A DNA stretch of 64,000 nt from Pseudomonadota bacterium (GCA_018623135.1 JAAZVW010000003.1:977-64976), one strand, 5' to 3'. Shown: positions 16,129 through 28,127, counted from the first letter of the stretch. Notes: generated by a model from the sequence alone, not told the origin. A program made the numbers and translations.

Positions 16129-16740
16129 TTATTCCTGCGCATTTTTTAATGCGTCAACCAAATCGCTAATATCCATGTTGCGGCCAAAGATGTCATTGGC
16201 TTTTTTCTGTAAGTTTTTCTCAACGTCACCAAACTCGTCATCTTTAACGCGATAAGCAAGGCGGAGAAATTCTTTACTTTCTGCCAGCACCTCTTCTTCT
16301 GTGGCTTTTGGTAATTGTTTTTTAACCATTTCAAAGGTGGCCACTTCAAAATCCGCATGGCGAATTTGTAAGTTAACCTGCAAACAGTTGTTAATCACAC
16401 GCTCAACAACCATCTTGGTTTGTTTTTCAATATTGCTGTCACAGTCTTCATAGCCGGCGGCCACAGCAGCTGCTTTGAGCTTTTCAGTGATTTGTCGGAT
16501 GTTCTCCAGCAGGTTGCGTTTTTGTTCTACGCTTTCACCATCTTGGTGATATTCAAACACAGCCTTGTAAATATCGTTCATGGCTTCAGAAAACGCAGAG
16601 CTCATAGCTGTGGATACGGTGTTTTTTATAACACCCATACGCAGTAATTTAATGTACTGCTTGTGCATAAAAGAAGACATTTTCAGGATGTCCTCTTGCG
16701 TAAAGTTAGAGAGCTTTTTTTCAGTTGTCATAGCGGTCAC
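16129..16740 (-). CDS. Hypothetical charged helical protein
   Basis: 203-aa ORF with no recognisable motif, followed by a terminator. Confidence 0.4.
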   Translation of the reverse strand: MTAMTTEKKLSNFTQEDILKMSSFMHKQYIKLLRMGVIKNTVSTAMSSAFSEAMNDIYKAVFEYHQDGESVEQKRNLLENIRQITEKLKAAAVAAGYEDCDSNIEKQTKMVVERVINNCLQVNLQIRHADFEVATFEMVKKQLPKATEEEVLAESKEFLRLAYRVKDDEFGDVEKNLQKKANDIFGRNMDISDLVDALKNAQE

Positions 16741-17300: not shown

Positions 17301-19463
17301 TTATTTGTCGGTTGCGTAAAATACACCGTCCCAGTCTTTTTCTGGCGGATTGTCTTCAAATTCTTTAATGCGTTGGCGGTATATGTCAACAAGCTTTCTA
17401 TGCTCAAGTACTTTGTCTAAGCATCGCTTAGCGGTTGTCCAGTCTTGGGCTCTAAAGGCATCAATAGCAGCAGATATGTTTAAAAGTTCTTCTACCTTAT
17501 TTTCAGGTATGCCATCGCCTAGCCAAATAAGCTCATAAACGTCTACAGGCTTTTGTTTCCCTTTTACAGCCACAAGGTCTAGTGGTACAAAATGGCCTTC
17601 TGGTACTTGGTTTTTAACGCTACCACTTACTACAATATCAACACCATAAAACTTACTTAAACCCTCTAAGCGAGAGGCAAGGTTAACGCCATCACCAATT
17701 ACAGTGTAGTTAAAACGCTGTTTAGAGCCCATATTACCAACAGAAACAATATCGGTATGAATACCAATACCAATTTTCATTTCAGGTAAATTATGTGCGA
17801 CAAAATATTTATTTAAATCGCTTAATTCTTGTAACATCTTAACAGCAGCTTTACAGGCTTGTTTGGCGTGTTCTTGCACGTCCATAGGAGCATTCCAAAA
17901 AGCCATAATGGCGTCACCAATGTATTTATCAATTGTACCTTTTGTGTGCTGTACAATTTCTGTCATTGGTGTGAGATAATGATTTAAGTAATCTGTAAGC
18001 TGTTTTGGGCTTAAATGTTCAGAAATTGTCGTAAAGGATCTAATATCTGTAAACATAAGCGTAAGTTCTTTGTTCTCGCCACCTAATGAAAGTTTTTCAG
18101 GTGCTTTTGAAAGTGTTTGTATCACTTCTGGCGCTAAATAATGCTGAAAGGCATGACGCACAGAACGTCTTTCTCGTTCTTCACGCGCAAAGCGTATGGT
18201 GTTTTGTACAATAAAGCTTAAGGTGATGGTTACAATAGGGTACATAATATCAAACAAATACCCGTAAGAGATATAAAGAATAATAGAAGTCCCAATTGTA
18301 AGGGCAATAAGCCATAGTGCACCTAAAAAGGCAAAAGTGGCTTTAAAGCGAGAGATGTATTTAATTAAGAACAAACCCGCAATAAGAATATAAAAAATTT
18401 CTACTGTATTGGCAAAAGAAGGCCTGTTTAAGTTTGTGCCAGTAAAAATTGTTTCTAGCATTTGCGCATGCACGTCTACCCCAGGTGTTACTGGGTTTAC
18501 AGGTGTCGCACGCATATCTAATAAACCAAGGGCAGAAGTACCCACAAGCAAAATAGCATCATCAAGCATGCCCTTTGGTAGCCTATTATGATACAAGTCA
18601 GTTGCAGAGATATAATTTAACCTATGGTAAGAACGATAGCGCACCCAAAATTGACCATGTTCATCTGTTGGTAAAACATATTTGCCCACTTTTACAGAAG
18701 AAACACCTGTTTGTTTATCTGTTTTAATAAAAAGCGGTGTTTTATCGCCCTGAAATAATCTAAGAGTTTCAACTACTAAAGAAGGGTAGAGCTGGTTTTG
18801 GTAGCTGCTAAAGGTATTAATTTTTCGGATGATATTATCGGAAGAGGGCACATAACCAAAACTACCAAATGATGAAAAAGAATCCTGAATTGTCGGTATA
18901 TTGGTAACGACGTGCTCGTAATTTGGTAACCATTCAGTGGCTAAAGCACCAATTTGGTTTACCGAAGATTTGTTTTTGAGCAAAGGAGATTTCCCTTGAG
19001 CATCCTGCGTAAATACAATACCTCCCACAACAGGGTATTCTTTTAAAAGCTCAGCAAAATGTTTATCGTGGTTTTTAAGGTTTTTTAAGCTTTCTTGCGT
19101 ATTGTAATCAAGGTTCCAGTATTCCATTGCTTGATCTGGGGATGTACGATCCACCTCTGCAAATACCATATCAAAGGCCATTACTTTTGTGCCTTGCTTA
19201 AAGGCTTTTTCAACAAGTTCAGCAACAAAGGTGCGTGGCCAAGGCCATTGGCCCATTTCGCTTAGACTTTTTTCATCAATATCAAGAATGAATACTTTTT
19301 CTGTAGGCGCTTTTTCACGTGGCCAAGCTTGCTGGTAGAGATCGAAAGATTTTAAACGAAGTGTCTGAATAAAATTAGGGTCAGCAATCCTAAGCAAAAT
19401 GAGTAAAAAGAGAATGGCAAATGGCACTAATTTAAGCACTATATTTTTATATGTAGCCGACAC
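17301..19463 (-). CDS. CHASE2-domain class III adenylate cyclase
   Basis: 720 aa with an N-terminal TM plus a periplasmic CHASE2-like region, three or more TM segments, and then a cyclase domain: FTDIRSFTTISE, DKYIGDAIMAFWNAP (Lys consistent with adenine specificity), YTVIGDGVNLASRLEG. Confidence 0.85.
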   Translation of the reverse strand: MSATYKNIVLKLVPFAILFLLILLRIADPNFIQTLRLKSFDLYQQAWPREKAPTEKVFILDIDEKSLSEMGQWPWPRTFVAELVEKAFKQGTKVMAFDMVFAEVDRTSPDQAMEYWNLDYNTQESLKNLKNHDKHFAELLKEYPVVGGIVFTQDAQGKSPLLKNKSSVNQIGALATEWLPNYEHVVTNIPTIQDSFSSFGSFGYVPSSDNIIRKINTFSSYQNQLYPSLVVETLRLFQGDKTPLFIKTDKQTGVSSVKVGKYVLPTDEHGQFWVRYRSYHRLNYISATDLYHNRLPKGMLDDAILLVGTSALGLLDMRATPVNPVTPGVDVHAQMLETIFTGTNLNRPSFANTVEIFYILIAGLFLIKYISRFKATFAFLGALWLIALTIGTSIILYISYGYLFDIMYPIVTITLSFIVQNTIRFAREERERRSVRHAFQHYLAPEVIQTLSKAPEKLSLGGENKELTLMFTDIRSFTTISEHLSPKQLTDYLNHYLTPMTEIVQHTKGTIDKYIGDAIMAFWNAPMDVQEHAKQACKAAVKMLQELSDLNKYFVAHNLPEMKIGIGIHTDIVSVGNMGSKQRFNYTVIGDGVNLASRLEGLSKFYGVDIVVSGSVKNQVPEGHFVPLDLVAVKGKQKPVDVYELIWLGDGIPENKVEELLNISAAIDAFRAQDWTTAKRCLDKVLEHRKLVDIYRQRIKEFEDNPPEKDWDGVFYATDK

Positions 19464-19503
19464 GTCCCTTTTTACCCCTTGCTTATATTATTTTTCTTAA
19501 AGG

Positions 19504-22272
19504 TTAGTTTTGTTTACCTATAAAAATACCACTTGCTGTATCAGCGCCTGCTGTAAAACCAAAGTTACCACCAGTTTCAACAGCATTTGGTCCAAAGAAC
19601 GCACCTTCTACGCTACCAGAACCACCACTTACATCAAACGTACCAGTAAAGACATTCTGACCCGAATCCCAGCCCATGTTACTATTGGCAAAGCTGTAAC
19701 CAGCAAAGCTAGAACTATCCATGCTTACATTGCGGGCATTAAAGTCTACAGCCATATTCAACACACCATTTTGTTGGATTACGCCATTATTTAAACTACC
19801 AATTAATGCGCCAGAGTATGTCGCTTGTACATTATTTGTTGCTAGCTGGTTTAAGTCTGTCGTTGTTGTAAGCTCACCTGCTACAAAGGCAGCATTGGCT
19901 TCTACAGAGCCGGCTTCTGCACCAGCATTTTCAAAAGTACCATTCCATAAGCCCCAGTGTACAAATTGGCAATCATTACAGCCGCCCGTTTGTCTTACAA
20001 GCTGGGCATTTTGAGCTGTTGTACTAAATGAACCTTTATCCGAATCCATATCACCAGTTAATGCGGTAGATGAACTAAAAGAAGTGATTTCTTTTTGTAC
20101 ACCAAAAGTACCGTCAGCTAGGCGAGGGGCAAAGTATAATTTACCACCTGCTGCTGTGTTACGGTTAATATATACGCCCTCAGCTGTGAGCTCAATTGCC
20201 AGCACATCTCCTGCTAAAATTTCAAAAGTTTTACTTAATTTATTTTTAGCTGCGTTAAATTGATAGAGTTCAATTTTGTTTGTATCTGTATTTGCAATTG
20301 CAAGCTGGTCACCTGCTAAAGATAGGTTTGCATTGCTACCCAAATCAAATTGCTGAATTGTGTTAAATGTTTGCGCATTTACAAGCTGTGTTTTACCGTT
20401 TGAATCTCGCAATACAATAAAGTTTTCATTCGCATCCATTTTTGCGAGTACAGAATTAAAGCCTGTTATTAAATTGACTGATCTATAGTTTGCTGTATCT
20501 GTAAGGTCAATTTCAAAAAGTTGCTTGCTGCTGTTTGTTGCCGCATATAGTTTATTGCCGACAACCTTAAATACATCACCAAATTTTTCATTCACTTGCA
20601 TGCCTGTTGGTTGCGTAATACTGCGTACAAATGTACCGCTATCATCAAATTCTAAAATAATACCAGCAAAACCAGATCCCCCATTCGCTGTATTATTATC
20701 AAATAGAGATAGACCTACAAAGGCATGGCCATTTTCTGCGATATCAACATAATTGTATTGGCCTGTATTGCCGTAAGAGCTAAAGCCTATATTTGGTAAG
20801 CTTAAGTCTGATTGTAATTGTGTGAGCACGCCTGTAAAGTTTAAGTTTGCTTTTGTGGCCCAAGCACCACCTGTGCGTTCATAAATAGTTATATAAGGCG
20901 CACTTGTATCAGAAGGTGTAGGTTTTGAAGAAACGGCAAAATTACCATTCATCGCTACAAGAGAATTATTTGCTGTTAAACCAATAGTCTCTGGCGTTTC
21001 TGCAAAGTTACGACTGTCGTAAAAGTTTAAATCACCATCTGCATTTCTTGCGATAAGTAATTCGTTCGATTGACGGAATGTATTAGATTGTTGATTAAGT
21101 GTATATTGCTCATCAAAAGTCATGCCTTCAGCCGTTGTTTTGAAAGCAGAATGGAACGAAGTACCATCTTCTGCGTAGGTGTTTACTTGTCCAAAAGCTT
21201 TGCCCTGGCTATTTGTTGCTAAATTCACCTTACCTTGAACCGCATCTGTAAATGCAGAGTTACCGCCTTGTTGCATAAACCCACCAACAAAGCCTCGTTT
21301 GCGGATATTAACATTCGTAGGTGCATTAAGTTGGTTATCGGTTACGCGTTGTTCTATTGTTTCTTGTGCGGCTGTTGTTAAGTCTACACGACGCTCTGCA
21401 GGTTGTCTTTGTTCAACAGCGTCGGCATCAGCAGGCGCTTGTGGTTTTGGTGCCTGCGCAACATCTTTAAATTTAGCAGCTACGGCAGCTTTTTTCTTTG
21501 GCTTTGCATCCGCTTTTTGCTCTTTATCAGTGTCGCCTTCTTCTGTTGGTGCTTTTTCTTGTGTTGCACCACCTTCTTCAGCAGGCGCTGTACCTTCTTG
21601 CTGTTCGGTTTCCTGTTCTTCGTTTTCAGCCGCTTCTTCACTGTCTGTAGAAAGCGCATCCTTTAACACAACAAGCTGTGCATTAGAAAAGGGCTTAGGC
21701 TCACTCGGCGCTGCACTCGGAGATGTGATCTCTGTAAAGAAGTTAGGTCTATCTAACGGCACAGAACCATTGTTATTCGACACATCTAAACAACAAACAG
21801 TTAAGCCTACAGTTGTCTGACCTGTGGGTTTTACTTCACCAATACCACCAGAACCACGTACACCAATTGTTGCAAACGGCGTATTTACTTTTACTTGGTC
21901 AGGGCGTTTTTTGGCAATTTTACCTGTAATGAATCTAAAAAAACCTTTGGTTACATTAATAACAGATTCACCTTCAGCACTCTTACTATCGTACACAAAT
22001 TTATCTAAAACAATTTCAGTATTGTGTCCAAGAGTAAAAATACTCTGGTCATTAAAAATAAGTTGAGCAGTACTCTCGCCCTCAGAAACTAGGGTTTGGT
22101 TTTCATAAACTTTATCTTTAACATCAAGCTTTGCTTTGTTGCTACCGTTTATCACAAAAACATCGCCCTTAATAGCGGCGACAATACCGATAGAATCTGC
22201 AGCTTGTGCAAGTTGGGATGTGACCGCCATTGCAAAAATAAAAATAGCTTTTTTAAATGTAGATGTCGTCAT
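19504..22272 (-). CDS. Secreted FecR-domain protein with an acidic/Lys-rich linker, a large central region and a C-terminal TbpB-like 8-strand beta-barrel domain
   Basis: 922 aa. SPI-type signal peptide (AMAVTSQLAQA-AD, no lipobox Cys). FecR-like region IKGDVFVINGS...TKGFFRFITGK...TPFATIGVRGSGG. Low-complexity residues about 208-295. C-terminus ATYSGALIGS...MAVDFNARNVS...GTFDVSGGSGSVEGAFFGPNAVETGGNFGF...SGIFIGKQN matches the TbpB/hemophilin-type barrel pattern. Confidence 0.7.
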   Translation of the reverse strand: MTTSTFKKAIFIFAMAVTSQLAQAADSIGIVAAIKGDVFVINGSNKAKLDVKDKVYENQTLVSEGESTAQLIFNDQSIFTLGHNTEIVLDKFVYDSKSAEGESVINVTKGFFRFITGKIAKKRPDQVKVNTPFATIGVRGSGGIGEVKPTGQTTVGLTVCCLDVSNNNGSVPLDRPNFFTEITSPSAAPSEPKPFSNAQLVVLKDALSTDSEEAAENEEQETEQQEGTAPAEEGGATQEKAPTEEGDTDKEQKADAKPKKKAAVAAKFKDVAQAPKPQAPADADAVEQRQPAERRVDLTTAAQETIEQRVTDNQLNAPTNVNIRKRGFVGGFMQQGGNSAFTDAVQGKVNLATNSQGKAFGQVNTYAEDGTSFHSAFKTTAEGMTFDEQYTLNQQSNTFRQSNELLIARNADGDLNFYDSRNFAETPETIGLTANNSLVAMNGNFAVSSKPTPSDTSAPYITIYERTGGAWATKANLNFTGVLTQLQSDLSLPNIGFSSYGNTGQYNYVDIAENGHAFVGLSLFDNNTANGGSGFAGIILEFDDSGTFVRSITQPTGMQVNEKFGDVFKVVGNKLYAATNSSKQLFEIDLTDTANYRSVNLITGFNSVLAKMDANENFIVLRDSNGKTQLVNAQTFNTIQQFDLGSNANLSLAGDQLAIANTDTNKIELYQFNAAKNKLSKTFEILAGDVLAIELTAEGVYINRNTAAGGKLYFAPRLADGTFGVQKEITSFSSSTALTGDMDSDKGSFSTTAQNAQLVRQTGGCNDCQFVHWGLWNGTFENAGAEAGSVEANAAFVAGELTTTTDLNQLATNNVQATYSGALIGSLNNGVIQQNGVLNMAVDFNARNVSMDSSSFAGYSFANSNMGWDSGQNVFTGTFDVSGGSGSVEGAFFGPNAVETGGNFGFTAGADTASGIFIGKQN

Positions 22273-22287
22273 TATTTTACCCTTACC

Positions 22288-23553
22288 CTAGAAACGCCAA
22301 CCTAAATTTGCACTAATACGTTCATTATCGTACGTATAGTTTGTAATGTTAGAGTTCACGTCTCTCCATATATAACTCATTGACGCGCTCAGCTTGCCAA
22401 AGGTTTTACCTACCGTTATTTGTGAGCCTCGTTCCGTTTCTTCACGTATCGTAGAAGGGTCAACAAAGCTGTCTACATTCTTATAGTCAGTGGCTTTAAT
22501 ATAAAAATTGACAGAGGCAAATAAACTTGGCGTAAACATACGTGTATAGCTAAAAGCGGCCATGTTTTGGTTGTAGCTATAATAAGCGCGACGTGCTTTT
22601 TCTTTCTGATGCTTATAGCTTAAGCTTAGTAAATCTTTAGGAGTAAAGGCGTATTTTACATCAAATAAAGCATAAAAAGCGTCACCATTACGCTCAGAAA
22701 GTGTGCGACTGTCAGCAGAATTAAAATAATGTTTGTTTTCCCAGCCTAATGTGGTGCTCAATGCTGTCTTTTTATTAAGCTGCTTGGCAACTTCTATGCT
22801 CAAAGTTGCGGCTTCTTGATAAGGTTTTTTACCTAAATCAATAAAGTTATACCCCACTTTAGGAGAAATACGCACACCACTTTTCGGGAAGTTAAGCACA
22901 GGCCCAGTAGACAAACTATGGAAGGTTAAATCAAGCTCTTCTAAACTGGCTTGTTTGGTCTTGTAAAAATTGTATTGGCTCTTCCATTGGTTCCCATCTT
23001 GGTCATGGAACATATATCTATGAGAAATACTTAAGCCAAAAGAGCGTGCATCGTCTTGCTGCCCCTTAGAGGCATCATCAAGCGGAATATCAATACCTTG
23101 AAAGGTCACTTCACCTGCAGCAGAAGCAGAATTTGCATTAGAATCCGTATGTAATCCTAAAGAAAGCGCACCAGAAACAAAATGTTTTTTCTGCTGTTCC
23201 TGTATTTTTTCTAGCAAAGCGTTAATATTGGCGATAACTTGCTGTGGCGGGTCCGCTTCTAGTACCTCAGTAAATAATTCTTTCGCTAACTCAAAATTAC
23301 CTAAAGAAACATGCAAAGCTGCTAAGTCCAGTTTAATACGTGGTAAATCTGGGTTTACAATAAGCATACGTTCATATGTTGCCATAGCGGCATCATAATC
23401 TTCTAGTTCTATGGCTTTGTTTGCATATTCAAAATTGAGGTCTAAATTAGTAGGGTCGTCCATTAAGCGTGCAAAAATAGCATCTAAGTCACTAGCGCTT
23501 GCATTTAAGCAAAGCAGGCAAATGAGTGTACTTAGTATAAACTGCTTTTTCAC
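22288..23553 (-). CDS. Slam-like outer-membrane protein (N-terminal TPR plus DUF560-like beta-barrel; type XI secretion candidate)
   Basis: 421 aa with a signal peptide (LCLNASASD). TPR-like helices cover about residues 30-120 (FEYANKAIELEDYDAAMATYERML...). The C-terminal roughly 290 aa has an alternating beta pattern and ends NSNITNYTYDNERISANLGWRF with a terminal Phe. Confidence 0.6.
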   Translation of the reverse strand: MKKQFILSTLICLLCLNASASDLDAIFARLMDDPTNLDLNFEYANKAIELEDYDAAMATYERMLIVNPDLPRIKLDLAALHVSLGNFELAKELFTEVLEADPPQQVIANINALLEKIQEQQKKHFVSGALSLGLHTDSNANSASAAGEVTFQGIDIPLDDASKGQQDDARSFGLSISHRYMFHDQDGNQWKSQYNFYKTKQASLEELDLTFHSLSTGPVLNFPKSGVRISPKVGYNFIDLGKKPYQEAATLSIEVAKQLNKKTALSTTLGWENKHYFNSADSRTLSERNGDAFYALFDVKYAFTPKDLLSLSYKHQKEKARRAYYSYNQNMAAFSYTRMFTPSLFASVNFYIKATDYKNVDSFVDPSTIREETERGSQITVGKTFGKLSASMSYIWRDVNSNITNYTYDNERISANLGWRF

Positions 23554-23579
23554 ATCTAATCCCTTAAGCGTTATTTTTA

Positions 23580-24140
23580 TTAAGCTGATAGTTTTTCTTT
23601 AAGAGCACAACGCTCAATAATCAAGCCTATAACAGGCATTAAATCTTTCGCATCATCCAAATGTTCTAGTTTAAAAGCGGTAATGTCGTTCTTTTCAATA
23701 TCAAAATGGTTAATCAGCTGAACCACGCCAATAACTGTGCCTTCAATATTTTTTAAAGGAAAGCTCAGCATAGATTTAGAGTGGTAATTATTTTCACGAT
23801 CAAAAGAAGGGTTAAAGCTATAAGGTACCGAAGCATCTAAAGCATAGAGGTTATCAATTTCAAGAAACTCACCCGTTGTTGCAACATAACCAGCAATAGA
23901 ACTTTCGTTTTGCGGGATACTAAAACGCTGTGGATCCACATTTATTTTATCGTTCTGGATAGAATAACAAACCAAATTATCTTCAGGTGTAGGGTCTACT
24001 AAATTTTCCACCATAAAAATACTGCCAGCTTCAGCAATGGTATGGCGACGTAGTTTTGCAAGAATAAGTTCCACAAGCTTATGCGTGTCTAACTGACCTT
24101 TAATAGAGATGGTATGCACAAATTCTTCGATAAGACTCAT
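23580..24140 (-). CDS. Stand-alone GAF-domain protein
   Basis: 186 aa. AEAGSIFMVEN...SIAGYVATTGEFLEIDNLY...SKSMLSFPLKNIEGTVIGVVQLINH is a canonical GAF pattern. No other domain is present. Confidence 0.75.
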   Translation of the reverse strand: MSLIEEFVHTISIKGQLDTHKLVELILAKLRRHTIAEAGSIFMVENLVDPTPEDNLVCYSIQNDKINVDPQRFSIPQNESSIAGYVATTGEFLEIDNLYALDASVPYSFNPSFDRENNYHSKSMLSFPLKNIEGTVIGVVQLINHFDIEKNDITAFKLEHLDDAKDLMPVIGLIIERCALKEKLSA

Positions 24141-24273
24141 GGTGTATTGCCCTTAATTTAGCGTTTTTCTTTTTATACTAGGGCAAAAAATGGGCTTTAT
24201 GCAAATGTAAGGGGTTAAAGGTCATACTTTATTCACAACCCCTGTTGCTTATATGCTTAGTTTATAAAGAGGC

Positions 24274-27584: not shown

Positions 27585-28127
27585 ATGAAACAGATCAAAA
27601 TCATTCTGTTTGCCTTGCTCACCCTGTTAATCTCAACAGGTACTTTAGCCATTGAGGTGGATAAAGAGCGCCTTTCCAATAATTGGGAAGAAACGAAAAA
27701 GCTCTTTCGTTGGGGTAAAGAAGAAGTAAAAGAAAAGTATAAACAAAAACGCATCGAGCGCGATAGTGCAGGTCTCTGCCAAATACGCTTTGGTGAAGAT
27801 AATGCAGATAGCCGATATATGGCTAGCTTAGCAAGAGATCTTCAAGATTTTTTTGGTATCACAACACACCGCTATGCTAGAGGTGTTAGTTACGATTACT
27901 TCAAAAAAATCGCCTATGGCGAAGCAGAAGCCGCAAGCTTAAGCCGTTACCCTCAGGATTTTGGGGTGAAACTGGTCGCACGTCTGCAGCTTAATATTAA
28001 AGACAAAGTGACTCTTTGTTGGTCGGAAGAATTCCGCACACAAATAGAAGCTTTTGAAACGTACACCAAGCGCGAAGGAAAAGAGTTGTATAAAACTTTC
28101 CAAAACGCTTTTCCACCGCATGAATAA
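27585..28127 (+). CDS. Hypothetical secreted protein
   Basis: 180 aa with a signal peptide (IILFALLTLLISTGTLA) and two Cys. No recognisable family. Confidence 0.45.
   Translation: MKQIKIILFALLTLLISTGTLAIEVDKERLSNNWEETKKLFRWGKEEVKEKYKQKRIERDSAGLCQIRFGEDNADSRYMASLARDLQDFFGITTHRYARGVSYDYFKKIAYGEAEAASLSRYPQDFGVKLVARLQLNIKDKVTLCWSEEFRTQIEAFETYTKREGKELYKTFQNAFPPHE

Follow-up and report, generated by a model that had tools for sequence, protein, structure and literature searches.

A Slam-family barrel and FecR-domain cargo pair linked to CHASE2 receptors suggests recruitment of secretion machinery for envelope-to-cAMP signaling

Why would an outer-membrane barrel of the Slam/DUF560 family, as used in type XI secretion systems (T11SS), and a matching cargo be encoded in one operon with a receptor adenylate cyclase? 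This question is raised by positions 17,301 to 24,140 of a 64,000-nucleotide (nt) stretch of DNA from a Pseudomonadota bacterium (GCA_018623135.1 JAAZVW010000003.1:977-64976), which as a whole is referred to here as the window. To our knowledge, both the ligand and the mode of activation of CHASE2, the sensor domain of this cyclase, are unknown more than 20 years after its description, and the literature on it is sparse. A sequence-only reading of the locus had proposed a secretion-coupled cyclic AMP (cAMP) module. Our analysis shows that the pairing of a Slam-family barrel with its cargo in the service of a CHASE2 receptor, in this case a cyclase with a GAF-domain accessory, is a widespread and essentially unannotated arrangement. 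It favors, at a probability of roughly 0.55, the interpretation that the operon specifies a signal-perception pathway that spans the envelope and has a type XI pair at its center, with cAMP as its output. The four genes are:

23580..24140, minus strand: stand-alone cytoplasmic GAF protein, 186 amino acids (aa) (PF01590, 38.6 bits)
22288..23553, minus strand: Slam/DUF560-family outer-membrane protein, 421 aa, with signal peptide, tetratricopeptide repeats (TPR) and 14-strand barrel (PF04575)
19504..22272, minus strand: Sec-exported, non-lipidated putative cargo, 922 aa, with FecR domain, disordered linker, β-propeller, and handle plus 8-strand barrel (Pfam, AlphaFold2 (AF2) models and profiles)
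17301..19463, minus strand: CHASE2 receptor adenylate cyclase, 720 aa (CHASE2, 165.7 bits; Guanylate_cyc, 80.6 bits)

These open reading frames (ORFs) are co-directional, run in the order GAF, barrel, cargo, cyclase, and are separated by gaps of 26, 15 and 40 nt. An AAGGG-type Shine-Dalgarno sequence lies 6-10 nt before each of the four start codons. None of the three intergenic gaps holds a terminator-like site, and the weak terminator-like sites of the region, all inside coding sequence, are not above expectation (10 versus 6.7 ± 3.1 in shuffles). The compact organization described by the sequence-only reading, including the C-termini it had quoted, is borne out by these ORF and terminator scans.

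The identity of the barrel protein can be read from its two parts:

23191..23490, minus strand: periplasmic TPR domain, aa 22-121 (TPR_19, 44.8 bits, and a weak TPR_Slam match)
22294..23184, minus strand: 14-strand β-barrel, aa 124-420 (fourteen long strands in the AF2 model)

It matches SlipAM/PF04575 at 42.7 bits (E 6.9e-11, cutoff 22) over profile positions 6-288 of 288, and precomputed SlipAM calls also fall on its orthologues in three of the homologous loci compared (L002, L004 and L007). The AF2 model, with a mean predicted local distance difference test score (pLDDT) of 89.7, places six TPR helices (22-32, 37-49, 53-66, 71-84, 87-99 and 104-121) ahead of the barrel. Its best-superposing folds in the PDB are the 14-strand barrels OmpG (template modeling score, TMt, 0.63-0.68) and CymA (0.52-0.55); no solved Slam structure is among these fold matches. 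The protein ends in ...NSNITNYTYDNERISANLGWRF, and the terminal ...RF β-signal is kept across the family. An exhaustive profile search placed 1,339 representative clusters in the barrel clade at E ≤ 1e-30, most of them annotated merely as 'tetratricopeptide repeat protein'.

The partner gene starts 15 nt downstream of the barrel gene and encodes a protein of four consecutive segments:

21673..22194, minus strand: FecR-type β-sandwich domain, aa 27-200 (PF04773, 35.8 bits at aa 61-153; pLDDT >90)
21223..21660, minus strand: disordered linker of ~145 aa, rich in Ala, Glu, Gln, Lys and Thr, aa 205-350 (pLDDT 26-52)
20068..21222, minus strand: β-propeller-like middle domain, aa ~351-735 (all-β, pLDDT 55-88)
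19507..20004, minus strand: CxxC motif, handle hairpin, helix and TbpB-type 8-strand barrel, aa 757-922 (pLDDT 83-96)

A Sec type I signal peptide without lipobox Cys can be read from the sequence (MTTSTFKKAIFIFAMAVTSQLAQA|AD), and the orthologues have similar AxA cleavage sites, likewise without a lipobox Cys. Conservation within the family is highest in the FecR domain. The protein contains exactly four cysteines, a vicinal pair within the FecR domain (Cys160-Cys161, 21790-21795) and Cys765-x-x-Cys768 (19969-19980) within a 'CxxCxxxHWGxW' motif that immediately precedes the C-terminal barrel. The near-invariance of both pairs among family members hints at disulfides, or else at a metal or redox site. 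A low-complexity linker occupies the matching position in shorter FecR proteins of other lineages (layout B, below). As to the propeller-like middle domain, relatives carry FG-GAP_2 repeats. Homologues are rare and unnamed, being annotated as 'hypothetical' or 'FecR domain-containing'.

The C-terminal segment carries the argument for a secretion relationship. Its AF2 model shows eight strands between aa 816 and 921, and the protein ends in ...GAFFGPNAVETGGNFGF...GIFIGKQN. As the window's cargo by itself falls short of the TbpB_B_D cutoff, 19 family members were used to build a C-terminal domain profile, A4. Run against all PDB sequences, A4 retrieved essentially TbpB-type barrels only (NHBA/GNA2132 at 3.5e-8, TbpB at 6e-6, followed by fHbp, hemophilin, LbpB and HpuA), the single unrelated entry having an E-value of 1.7. 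TbpB_B_D is matched at E ≤ 1 by 16 of the 19 members and FHBP_C by 11, and the member from L009 lies above the FHBP_C cutoff (28.4 versus 28.1). Judged by these profiles, the cargo C-terminus is homologous to TbpB-type barrels, a relationship secured at the level of the family. Foldseek of the full-length model against the PDB returned only propellers, with AztD on top followed by BamB and WD40 proteins, and is therefore uninformative on the C-terminal barrel.

The pair thus resembles known T11SS (TbpB, LbpB, fHbp, HpuA, hemophilin/HrpC, NilC, Pls) in combining a TPR and 14-strand barrel protein that passes PF04575 with a partner encoded directly downstream. The partner, in turn, carries a Sec signal and ends in an 8-strand barrel that shows the G-x-F-[FY]-G-P-x-A-x-E...G-[IV]-F-x-G motif of T11SS cargo, and hemophilin-type proteins offer a precedent for a cargo that is not lipidated (PMC12282271). 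The identification of Slam and cargo in the sequence-only reading is upheld by the 14-strand and 8-strand models and by the specificity of A4. Unlike in known systems, however, the effector end consists of a FecR domain and a β-propeller, absent from the ten cargo architectures of PMC12282271, and the pair is embedded in a CHASE2-cyclase operon rather than in a TonB-dependent receptor, metal or heme context. The T11SS surveys PMC8406197 and PMC12282271 covered clusters 1 and 3 of the sequence similarity network only. About ten cargo architectures appear in them, none with FecR; in their available portions CHASE2, cyclase and GAF are not mentioned, and FecR figures only as a neighborhood domain together with ECF sigma-factor domains, in a classical iron-uptake context. 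Hooda 2017 likewise holds nothing on a Slam-FecR-CHASE2 arrangement.

The last gene of the operon encodes a receptor cyclase that appears fully equipped for catalysis:

18420..19364, minus strand: periplasmic CHASE2 sensor domain, aa ~34-348 (hydropathy scan; Pfam CHASE2 match at aa 18-364)
17544..18071, minus strand: class IIIb cyclase catalytic domain, aa 465-640 (aligns to P. aeruginosa CyaB, 1.4e-29, and to Spirulina CyaC)

Hydropathy places one transmembrane segment (TM1) at aa ~10-33 and three more (TM2-4) at aa 349-419, with CHASE2 between them. The set of catalytic residues is complete, with D473 and D517 for metal binding, K513 and T587 as the adenine-specifying pair, and N594 and R598 for transition-state stabilization. 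A Lys-Thr pair confers ATP specificity in class IIIb cyclases. As an observation apart, the last ~15 residues (…PP·K·WDG·F·AT·K; window 17301-17330), which lie beyond the catalytic domain, are conserved in L001-L011, even in the distant Omnitrophota and JGI cyclases.

The GAF protein at the other end of the operon has neither a signal peptide nor a TM segment. Its ten best PDB matches are all cyclic nucleotide monophosphate (cNMP)-binding GAF domains of phosphodiesterases (PDEs) or cyclases (PDE2A GAF-B as the best, 5.4e-8, and PDE5, CyaB2 and PDE10), while of the NKFDE-type pocket only a degenerate N-H...F...D-D remnant can be made out by eye. The protein is a candidate cyclic-nucleotide, presumably cAMP, binder, as the sequence-only reading had suggested. 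All six domain assignments made there are supported, those of GAF, PF04575, FecR, CHASE2 and cyclase by Pfam and that of the TbpB-type barrel by the family profile. The four products accordingly distribute over cytoplasm (GAF), inner membrane (cyclase), periplasm or surface (cargo) and outer membrane (barrel).

Does this combination reflect a functional unit? The full cassette of GAF, Slam, FecR::barrel and CHASE2-cyclase genes recurs in the same order in L002/L003, L004/L005, L007 (=L016), L008, L015, L017 and L095, and a partial one in L001 and L014; in all, at least eight distinct loci besides the present one keep this order. The flanks of L002/L003, a Proteobacteria metagenome-assembled genome (MAG), resemble those of the operon in the window; L004/L005, an alphaproteobacterial MAG, has other flanks, and L007 differs from both. 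L015 stems from a Magnetococcales MAG and L017 from an alphaproteobacterial one. At least four different flanking contexts are thus represented. Chance is far from sufficient to account for the arrangement, given how many unrelated genomic contexts repeat its gene order. When species-representative genomes were scanned starting from FecR, at least 522 loci with the cargo's FecR subtype emerged, the best 79 of which were scored with our own profiles, adding the cassettes of L015 and L017; the best genome matches are 41-46% identical and come from MAGs of Alphaproteobacteria or unclassified Pseudomonadota. Of the 12 loci that encode cargo-type proteins, 10 keep barrel and cargo paired.

A search that starts from FecR is biased, and a second scan, of metagenome contigs, therefore started from the barrel. 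A FecR gene lies directly downstream in 21 of the 24 loci with at least 700 nt after the barrel gene, the three exceptions being short, frameshifted or partial, and a CHASE2 sensor is adjacent in 16 of the 18 loci having enough flanking DNA. Nine of 17 complete FecR partners score with the profile of the TbpB-type barrel; in a further three, a sub-threshold match falls at the extreme C-terminus, and two of these matches span the full TbpB_B_D profile. The linkage of barrel, FecR partner and CHASE2 extends over Alphaproteobacteria, Magnetococcales, Betaproteobacteria, Omnitrophota, Elusimicrobia, Planctomycetia and Nitrospirota, although the genes are reordered and the flanks differ. This conserved synteny supports the functional link to the CHASE2 cyclase that the sequence-only reading had drawn.

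These data also bear on the idea that the adjacency is coincidental or merely a matter of co-regulation, an ordinary T11SS pair for nutrient or metal scavenging sharing its operon with a separate cyclase/GAF signaling unit. Barrel and cargo pairs without a cyclase do exist (L009, L012), and the top Foldseek match of the middle domain is a zinc chaperone, AztD. That match, however, is a generic propeller match with a TMt of about 0.4; no TonB-dependent receptor, TonB or metal-uptake gene occurs near the operon or in the annotated neighborhoods of its relatives; and the linkage persists over the seven taxa listed despite rearranged gene order and different flanks. We consider coincidence very improbable. 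On the premise that FecR-domain and CHASE2 genes often neighbor ShlB/FhaC-type transporters, the sequence-only reading had further supposed that such a transporter was replaced here by a type XI one. This found no backing, as no POTRA/ShlB family is present among the precomputed Pfam calls of the twelve neighborhoods L001-L012 or in that of L066 (L013-L129 were not screened systematically).

Across lineages, the conserved core consists of the barrel, the FecR partner and the CHASE2 sensor, while the cytoplasmic accessory gene varies. The GAF gene does not belong to this core because, among the loci scored, it is confined to the window's own sub-lineage, where its orthologues hold the first cassette position in L002, L004, L007, L008, L014, L015, L017 and L095; it is a lineage-specific accessory. 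In Omnitrophota, Elusimicrobia, Planctomycetia and Nitrospirota, a Slam-like gene is followed by a short FecR gene (450-600 aa), with the CHASE2 cyclase on the opposite strand (layout B), and the cyclase is accompanied either by DUF6901 and a metallo-β-lactamase (MBL)-fold hydrolase or by a GAF-SpoIIE (PP2C) phosphatase. In Betaproteobacteria, the cyclase comes first, then the Slam-like gene, then FecR (layout C). Among the loci found from the FecR side, one in an Elusimicrobia MAG (L022:4411-6462) encodes a CHASE2 histidine kinase, and no cyclase, next to the Slam-like and FecR pair. The envelope module is thus not bound to one output domain, which points to CHASE2, rather than the cyclase domain or cAMP as such, as the partner to which it is coupled. 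Of the secretion-coupled cAMP module originally envisaged, the conserved linkage to CHASE2 stands, whereas the tie to cAMP itself and the place of the GAF protein within the core do not.

Two associations among the accessory genes may be recorded in their own right. A GAF-SpoIIE fusion takes the position of the GAF-only protein beside the CHASE2 cyclase in two Omnitrophota loci (L024:4649-5956, L062:10654-11946), which suggests a cAMP-to-phosphatase output in the lineages concerned. DUF6901 (PF21842) beside a CHASE2 cyclase is always paired with an MBL-fold hydrolase (L010:10436-13354, where the two also occur fused; L011:11936-13536; L078:11595-13174) and is possibly a regulatory partner of a cyclic-nucleotide phosphodiesterase. 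The accessory genes of other lineages being cyclic-nucleotide related, it would fit that the GAF protein acts on the cAMP side.

What might connect the FecR protein with the sensor? FecR genes recur beside CHASE2 sensors whatever the output domain and whatever is fused to FecR, in support of a coupling between the two. In S. meliloti, a FecR gene adjoins a CHASE2 cyclase (PMC5498481), which we confirmed with our own profiles; the cyclase is taken to be SMc02177/cyaD1. In the same organism, activation of the CHASE2 cyclases CyaK and CyaD1/D2 by an external protein signal needs the outer-membrane protein NsrA (PMC7529298, PMC13001267). The NsrA-CyaK/CyaD1/D2 system is thus similar to the present locus in that an outer-membrane-associated protein, encoded beside a CHASE2 cyclase, is needed to convert an external signal into cAMP, and in the FecR-domain protein encoded next to the presumed cyaD1. 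By contrast, NsrA is described as one polypeptide of ~1,200 aa that includes a barrel (aa 600-1200), and not as a Slam and cargo pair.

A probable relative is a four-gene cluster described in Campylobacterota in 2022, comprising a CHASE2 cyclase, a phosphodiesterase, a FecR 'outer membrane protein' plus a TPR protein, for which a shared pathway was proposed (PMC9239204). The core logic is the same, and by comparison of the descriptions this cluster and our layout B (L010, L011, L078: TPR-barrel, FecR, CHASE2 cyclase and MBL-fold hydrolase with DUF6901) are most likely one family. It differs from the present operon in having a phosphodiesterase in place of the GAF-only protein, and PMC9239204 gives neither a Slam/T11SS reading nor an analysis of a cargo barrel. 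The architecture has hence not gone entirely unremarked: it is absent from the T11SS surveys, but a similar cluster had been noted, albeit without reference to Slam. Two further systems share part of the logic. In the Burkholderia 'BiofilmReg' operon, the gene of a secreted FecR-domain protein lies directly upstream of the gene of a CHASE2 sensor, a histidine kinase, but there is no outer-membrane barrel gene, the output is two-component, and FecR carries LysM instead of propeller and barrel (PMC5192318). In E. coli FecA-FecR, a FecR-type periplasmic domain relays from an outer-membrane barrel to an inner-membrane signaling protein; that FecR, however, is an inner-membrane anti-sigma regulator contacting a TonB-dependent transducer, whereas in the present locus a soluble exported protein carries the FecR domain, the barrel is of Slam type and the output is cAMP.

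Combining these elements, the favored pathway would operate as follows. A C-terminal TbpB-type barrel is the known T11SS targeting domain, and through it the barrel protein would recognize the cargo and position its propeller and barrel portion either at the outer membrane or across it. As a periplasmic protein-protein interaction module, the FecR domain would engage the periplasmic CHASE2 domain, so that the location, ligand occupancy or export state of the cargo might set cAMP synthesis. The GAF protein, finally, would bind the cAMP produced, as receptor, buffer or feedback element.

This scheme departs from the view of the sequence-only reading that a surface-exposed or released FecR protein is the ligand of CHASE2. 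Topology conflicts with it: TM1 on one side and TM2-4 on the other enclose a periplasmic CHASE2 domain, which is out of reach in cis for a FecR protein that has been released. The succession of a folded FecR domain, a long disordered linker and an outer-membrane-targeting domain rather favors a protein whose two ends act in different layers of the envelope, as does the fusion of the same FecR subtype to RTX, i.e. type I secretion system (T1SS), modules in L066. Sec-exported and already folded, the FecR domain might be retained in the periplasm on CHASE2, with the linker running through or alongside the Slam barrel and the propeller and 8-strand barrel exposed on the surface as a ligand-binding head, much as the N-terminus of LapA is retained in the periplasm in T1SS adhesins. 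In this specific form the proposal is tentative, and we consider it unlikely.

Just as tentatively, the FecR protein could bind CHASE2 in the periplasm, activating or inhibiting it, until the Slam barrel removes it by secreting it completely, to the surface or into the medium, a partner switch in the manner of FlgM; cAMP would then report T11SS activity or the state of the outer membrane, a workable form of the earlier secretion-coupled idea. Such an export switch draws on the same domain and synteny evidence. Known T11SS cargo, including the non-lipidated hemophilin-type proteins, is fully surface-exposed or released (PMC12282271), and the FecR subtype fused to RTX repeats in Rhodospirillaceae giants indicates that the module does occur on exported proteins. 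Against this, the large conserved β-propeller and the long linker would be left without a role, and evidence for release is lacking, though the sequence data do not separate the switch from the favored pathway.

Several findings weigh against the proposed pathway. The window's own cargo stays below the TbpB_B_D cutoff of 26 (19.9 bits for the whole protein, 24.2 for the isolated domain), and the more distant relatives of the barrel fail PF04575. The C-termini of the short layout-B FecR proteins (profile A5) reach an hhalign probability of only 7% with the cargo barrel profile A4. The pairs in L009 and L012 are devoid of any cyclase, and a cargo-type gene lacks an adjacent barrel gene in L006 and L013. 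Moreover, a cargo transferred to the surface in its entirety, as TbpB is, would have a FecR domain unable to reach CHASE2, and the FecR-CHASE2 and cargo-barrel links are deduced from genes rather than from experiment or a co-fold model. Coupling of barrel and cargo to a cyclase is, accordingly, frequent and not obligatory. A search of the PDB with A5 gave nothing relevant either, and we do not claim a TbpB-type barrel for the layout-B FecR proteins despite their conserved C-terminal domain. As distant barrels fail PF04575 and layout-B C-termini show no detectable relationship to TbpB-type barrels, a clear T11SS signature on both partners is limited to the window's lineage and some mid-size relatives, and the secretion relationship cannot be generalized to the whole clade.

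Some of the same observations could be accommodated if the barrel were no translocon at all, but an NsrA-like outer-membrane (co)receptor or anchor. The FecR protein would in that case be a wholly periplasmic adaptor bridging the TPR domain and CHASE2, and its 8-strand barrel a binding or ligand domain only. NsrA itself, needed for CHASE2-cyclase activation, is an outer-membrane barrel of which only the loops are surface-exposed (PMC7529298). Most of the wider barrel clade fails PF04575, the layout-B FecR partners have no detectable TbpB-type barrel, and some loci contain just a small TPR protein with FecR and cyclase (L093). In the window, however, both partners bear specific T11SS signatures, the full-length PF04575 match above cutoff and the A4 profile, in the canonical order of barrel then cargo, and this interpretation seems to us rather doubtful, slightly more so than the two preceding ones. 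A tether, an export switch and a purely periplasmic adaptor may all be workable variants, among which sequence data do not decide.

With respect to its setting, the operon has one sizeable non-coding gap at its 5' end:

24141..24273, minus strand: 133-nt intergenic stretch 5' of the GAF gene, the probable promoter region of the operon, inferred from its position

At the 3' end, the stop codon of the cyclase gene lies 5 nt from that of the convergent panD gene. The four-gene block is flanked by housekeeping genes (MutS, MurJ, ThrRS, LolA, RsmB, Rpe and an AcrB-type efflux protein), and no shift in composition is seen across it. An origin from a mobile element or island was rejected on these two grounds, which identify the operon as resident chromosomal. 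One query for a CRP-like cNMP-binding protein found no match in the window, a weak test. Two ORFs near the operon have no Pfam match, one of 203 aa at 16129-16740 (minus strand), helical, rich in charged residues and located between panD and a NUDIX gene, and one of 180 aa at 27585-28127 (plus strand).

The FecR subtype of the cargo also occurs in other surroundings. About 50 loci among L018-L091 encode giant proteins of 800-2,970 aa that have it at the N-terminus. One of them, in Caenispirillum salinarum (Rhodospirillaceae; L066:7641-14660), carries RTX calcium-binding repeats, the mark of type I secretion substrates, and no Slam-like or CHASE2 gene lies within 8 kb of it. Given this fusion and the TbpB-type barrel of the window's cargo, one FecR N-terminal module evidently joins different C-terminal export modules. 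On a plasmid of Ensifer sp. PDNC004 (L093; NZ_CP070354.1 753260-767772), a cyclase and an MBL hydrolase gene are divergent from genes for a TPR protein of 104 aa and a FecR protein of 220 aa, beyond which lie an NHLP-type bacteriocin export system and a cNMP-binding protein, linking the module to peptide export in that replicon. In S. meliloti Ak57 (L092; CP090106.1 2205106-2208412), the CHASE2 cyclase gene, taken to be the cyaD1 equivalent, is convergent with the FecR gene and apparently frameshifted, its cyclase domain being split over two ORFs and absent from the gene table; the 3.7-Mb record bears the label 'pSymB', although a replicon of this size is more suggestive of a chromosome.

For CHASE2 receptors, the linked FecR partner and outer-membrane barrel provide a concrete, testable three-protein system in which activation can be approached. 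For type XI secretion, the implications would be wider. Verified T11SS cargo are all adhesins, hemophores or metal-binding proteins, and no FecR or signaling architecture appears in the published surveys; the locus suggests that secretion machinery was recruited for envelope-to-cAMP signaling, which, if true, would add signal transduction to T11SS functions beyond nutrient capture. The barrel clade is large and reaches phyla in which no T11SS has been described. Should the FecR domain indeed be held on CHASE2 while the far end of the cargo faces outward, the system would constitute a TonB-independent wire from the cell exterior to periplasmic CHASE2 and the first signaling role for type XI secretion, and the occurrence of the Slam-like clade in Omnitrophota, Elusimicrobia, Planctomycetia and Nitrospirota would mean that machinery of the T11SS type is found outside the Proteobacteria as well.

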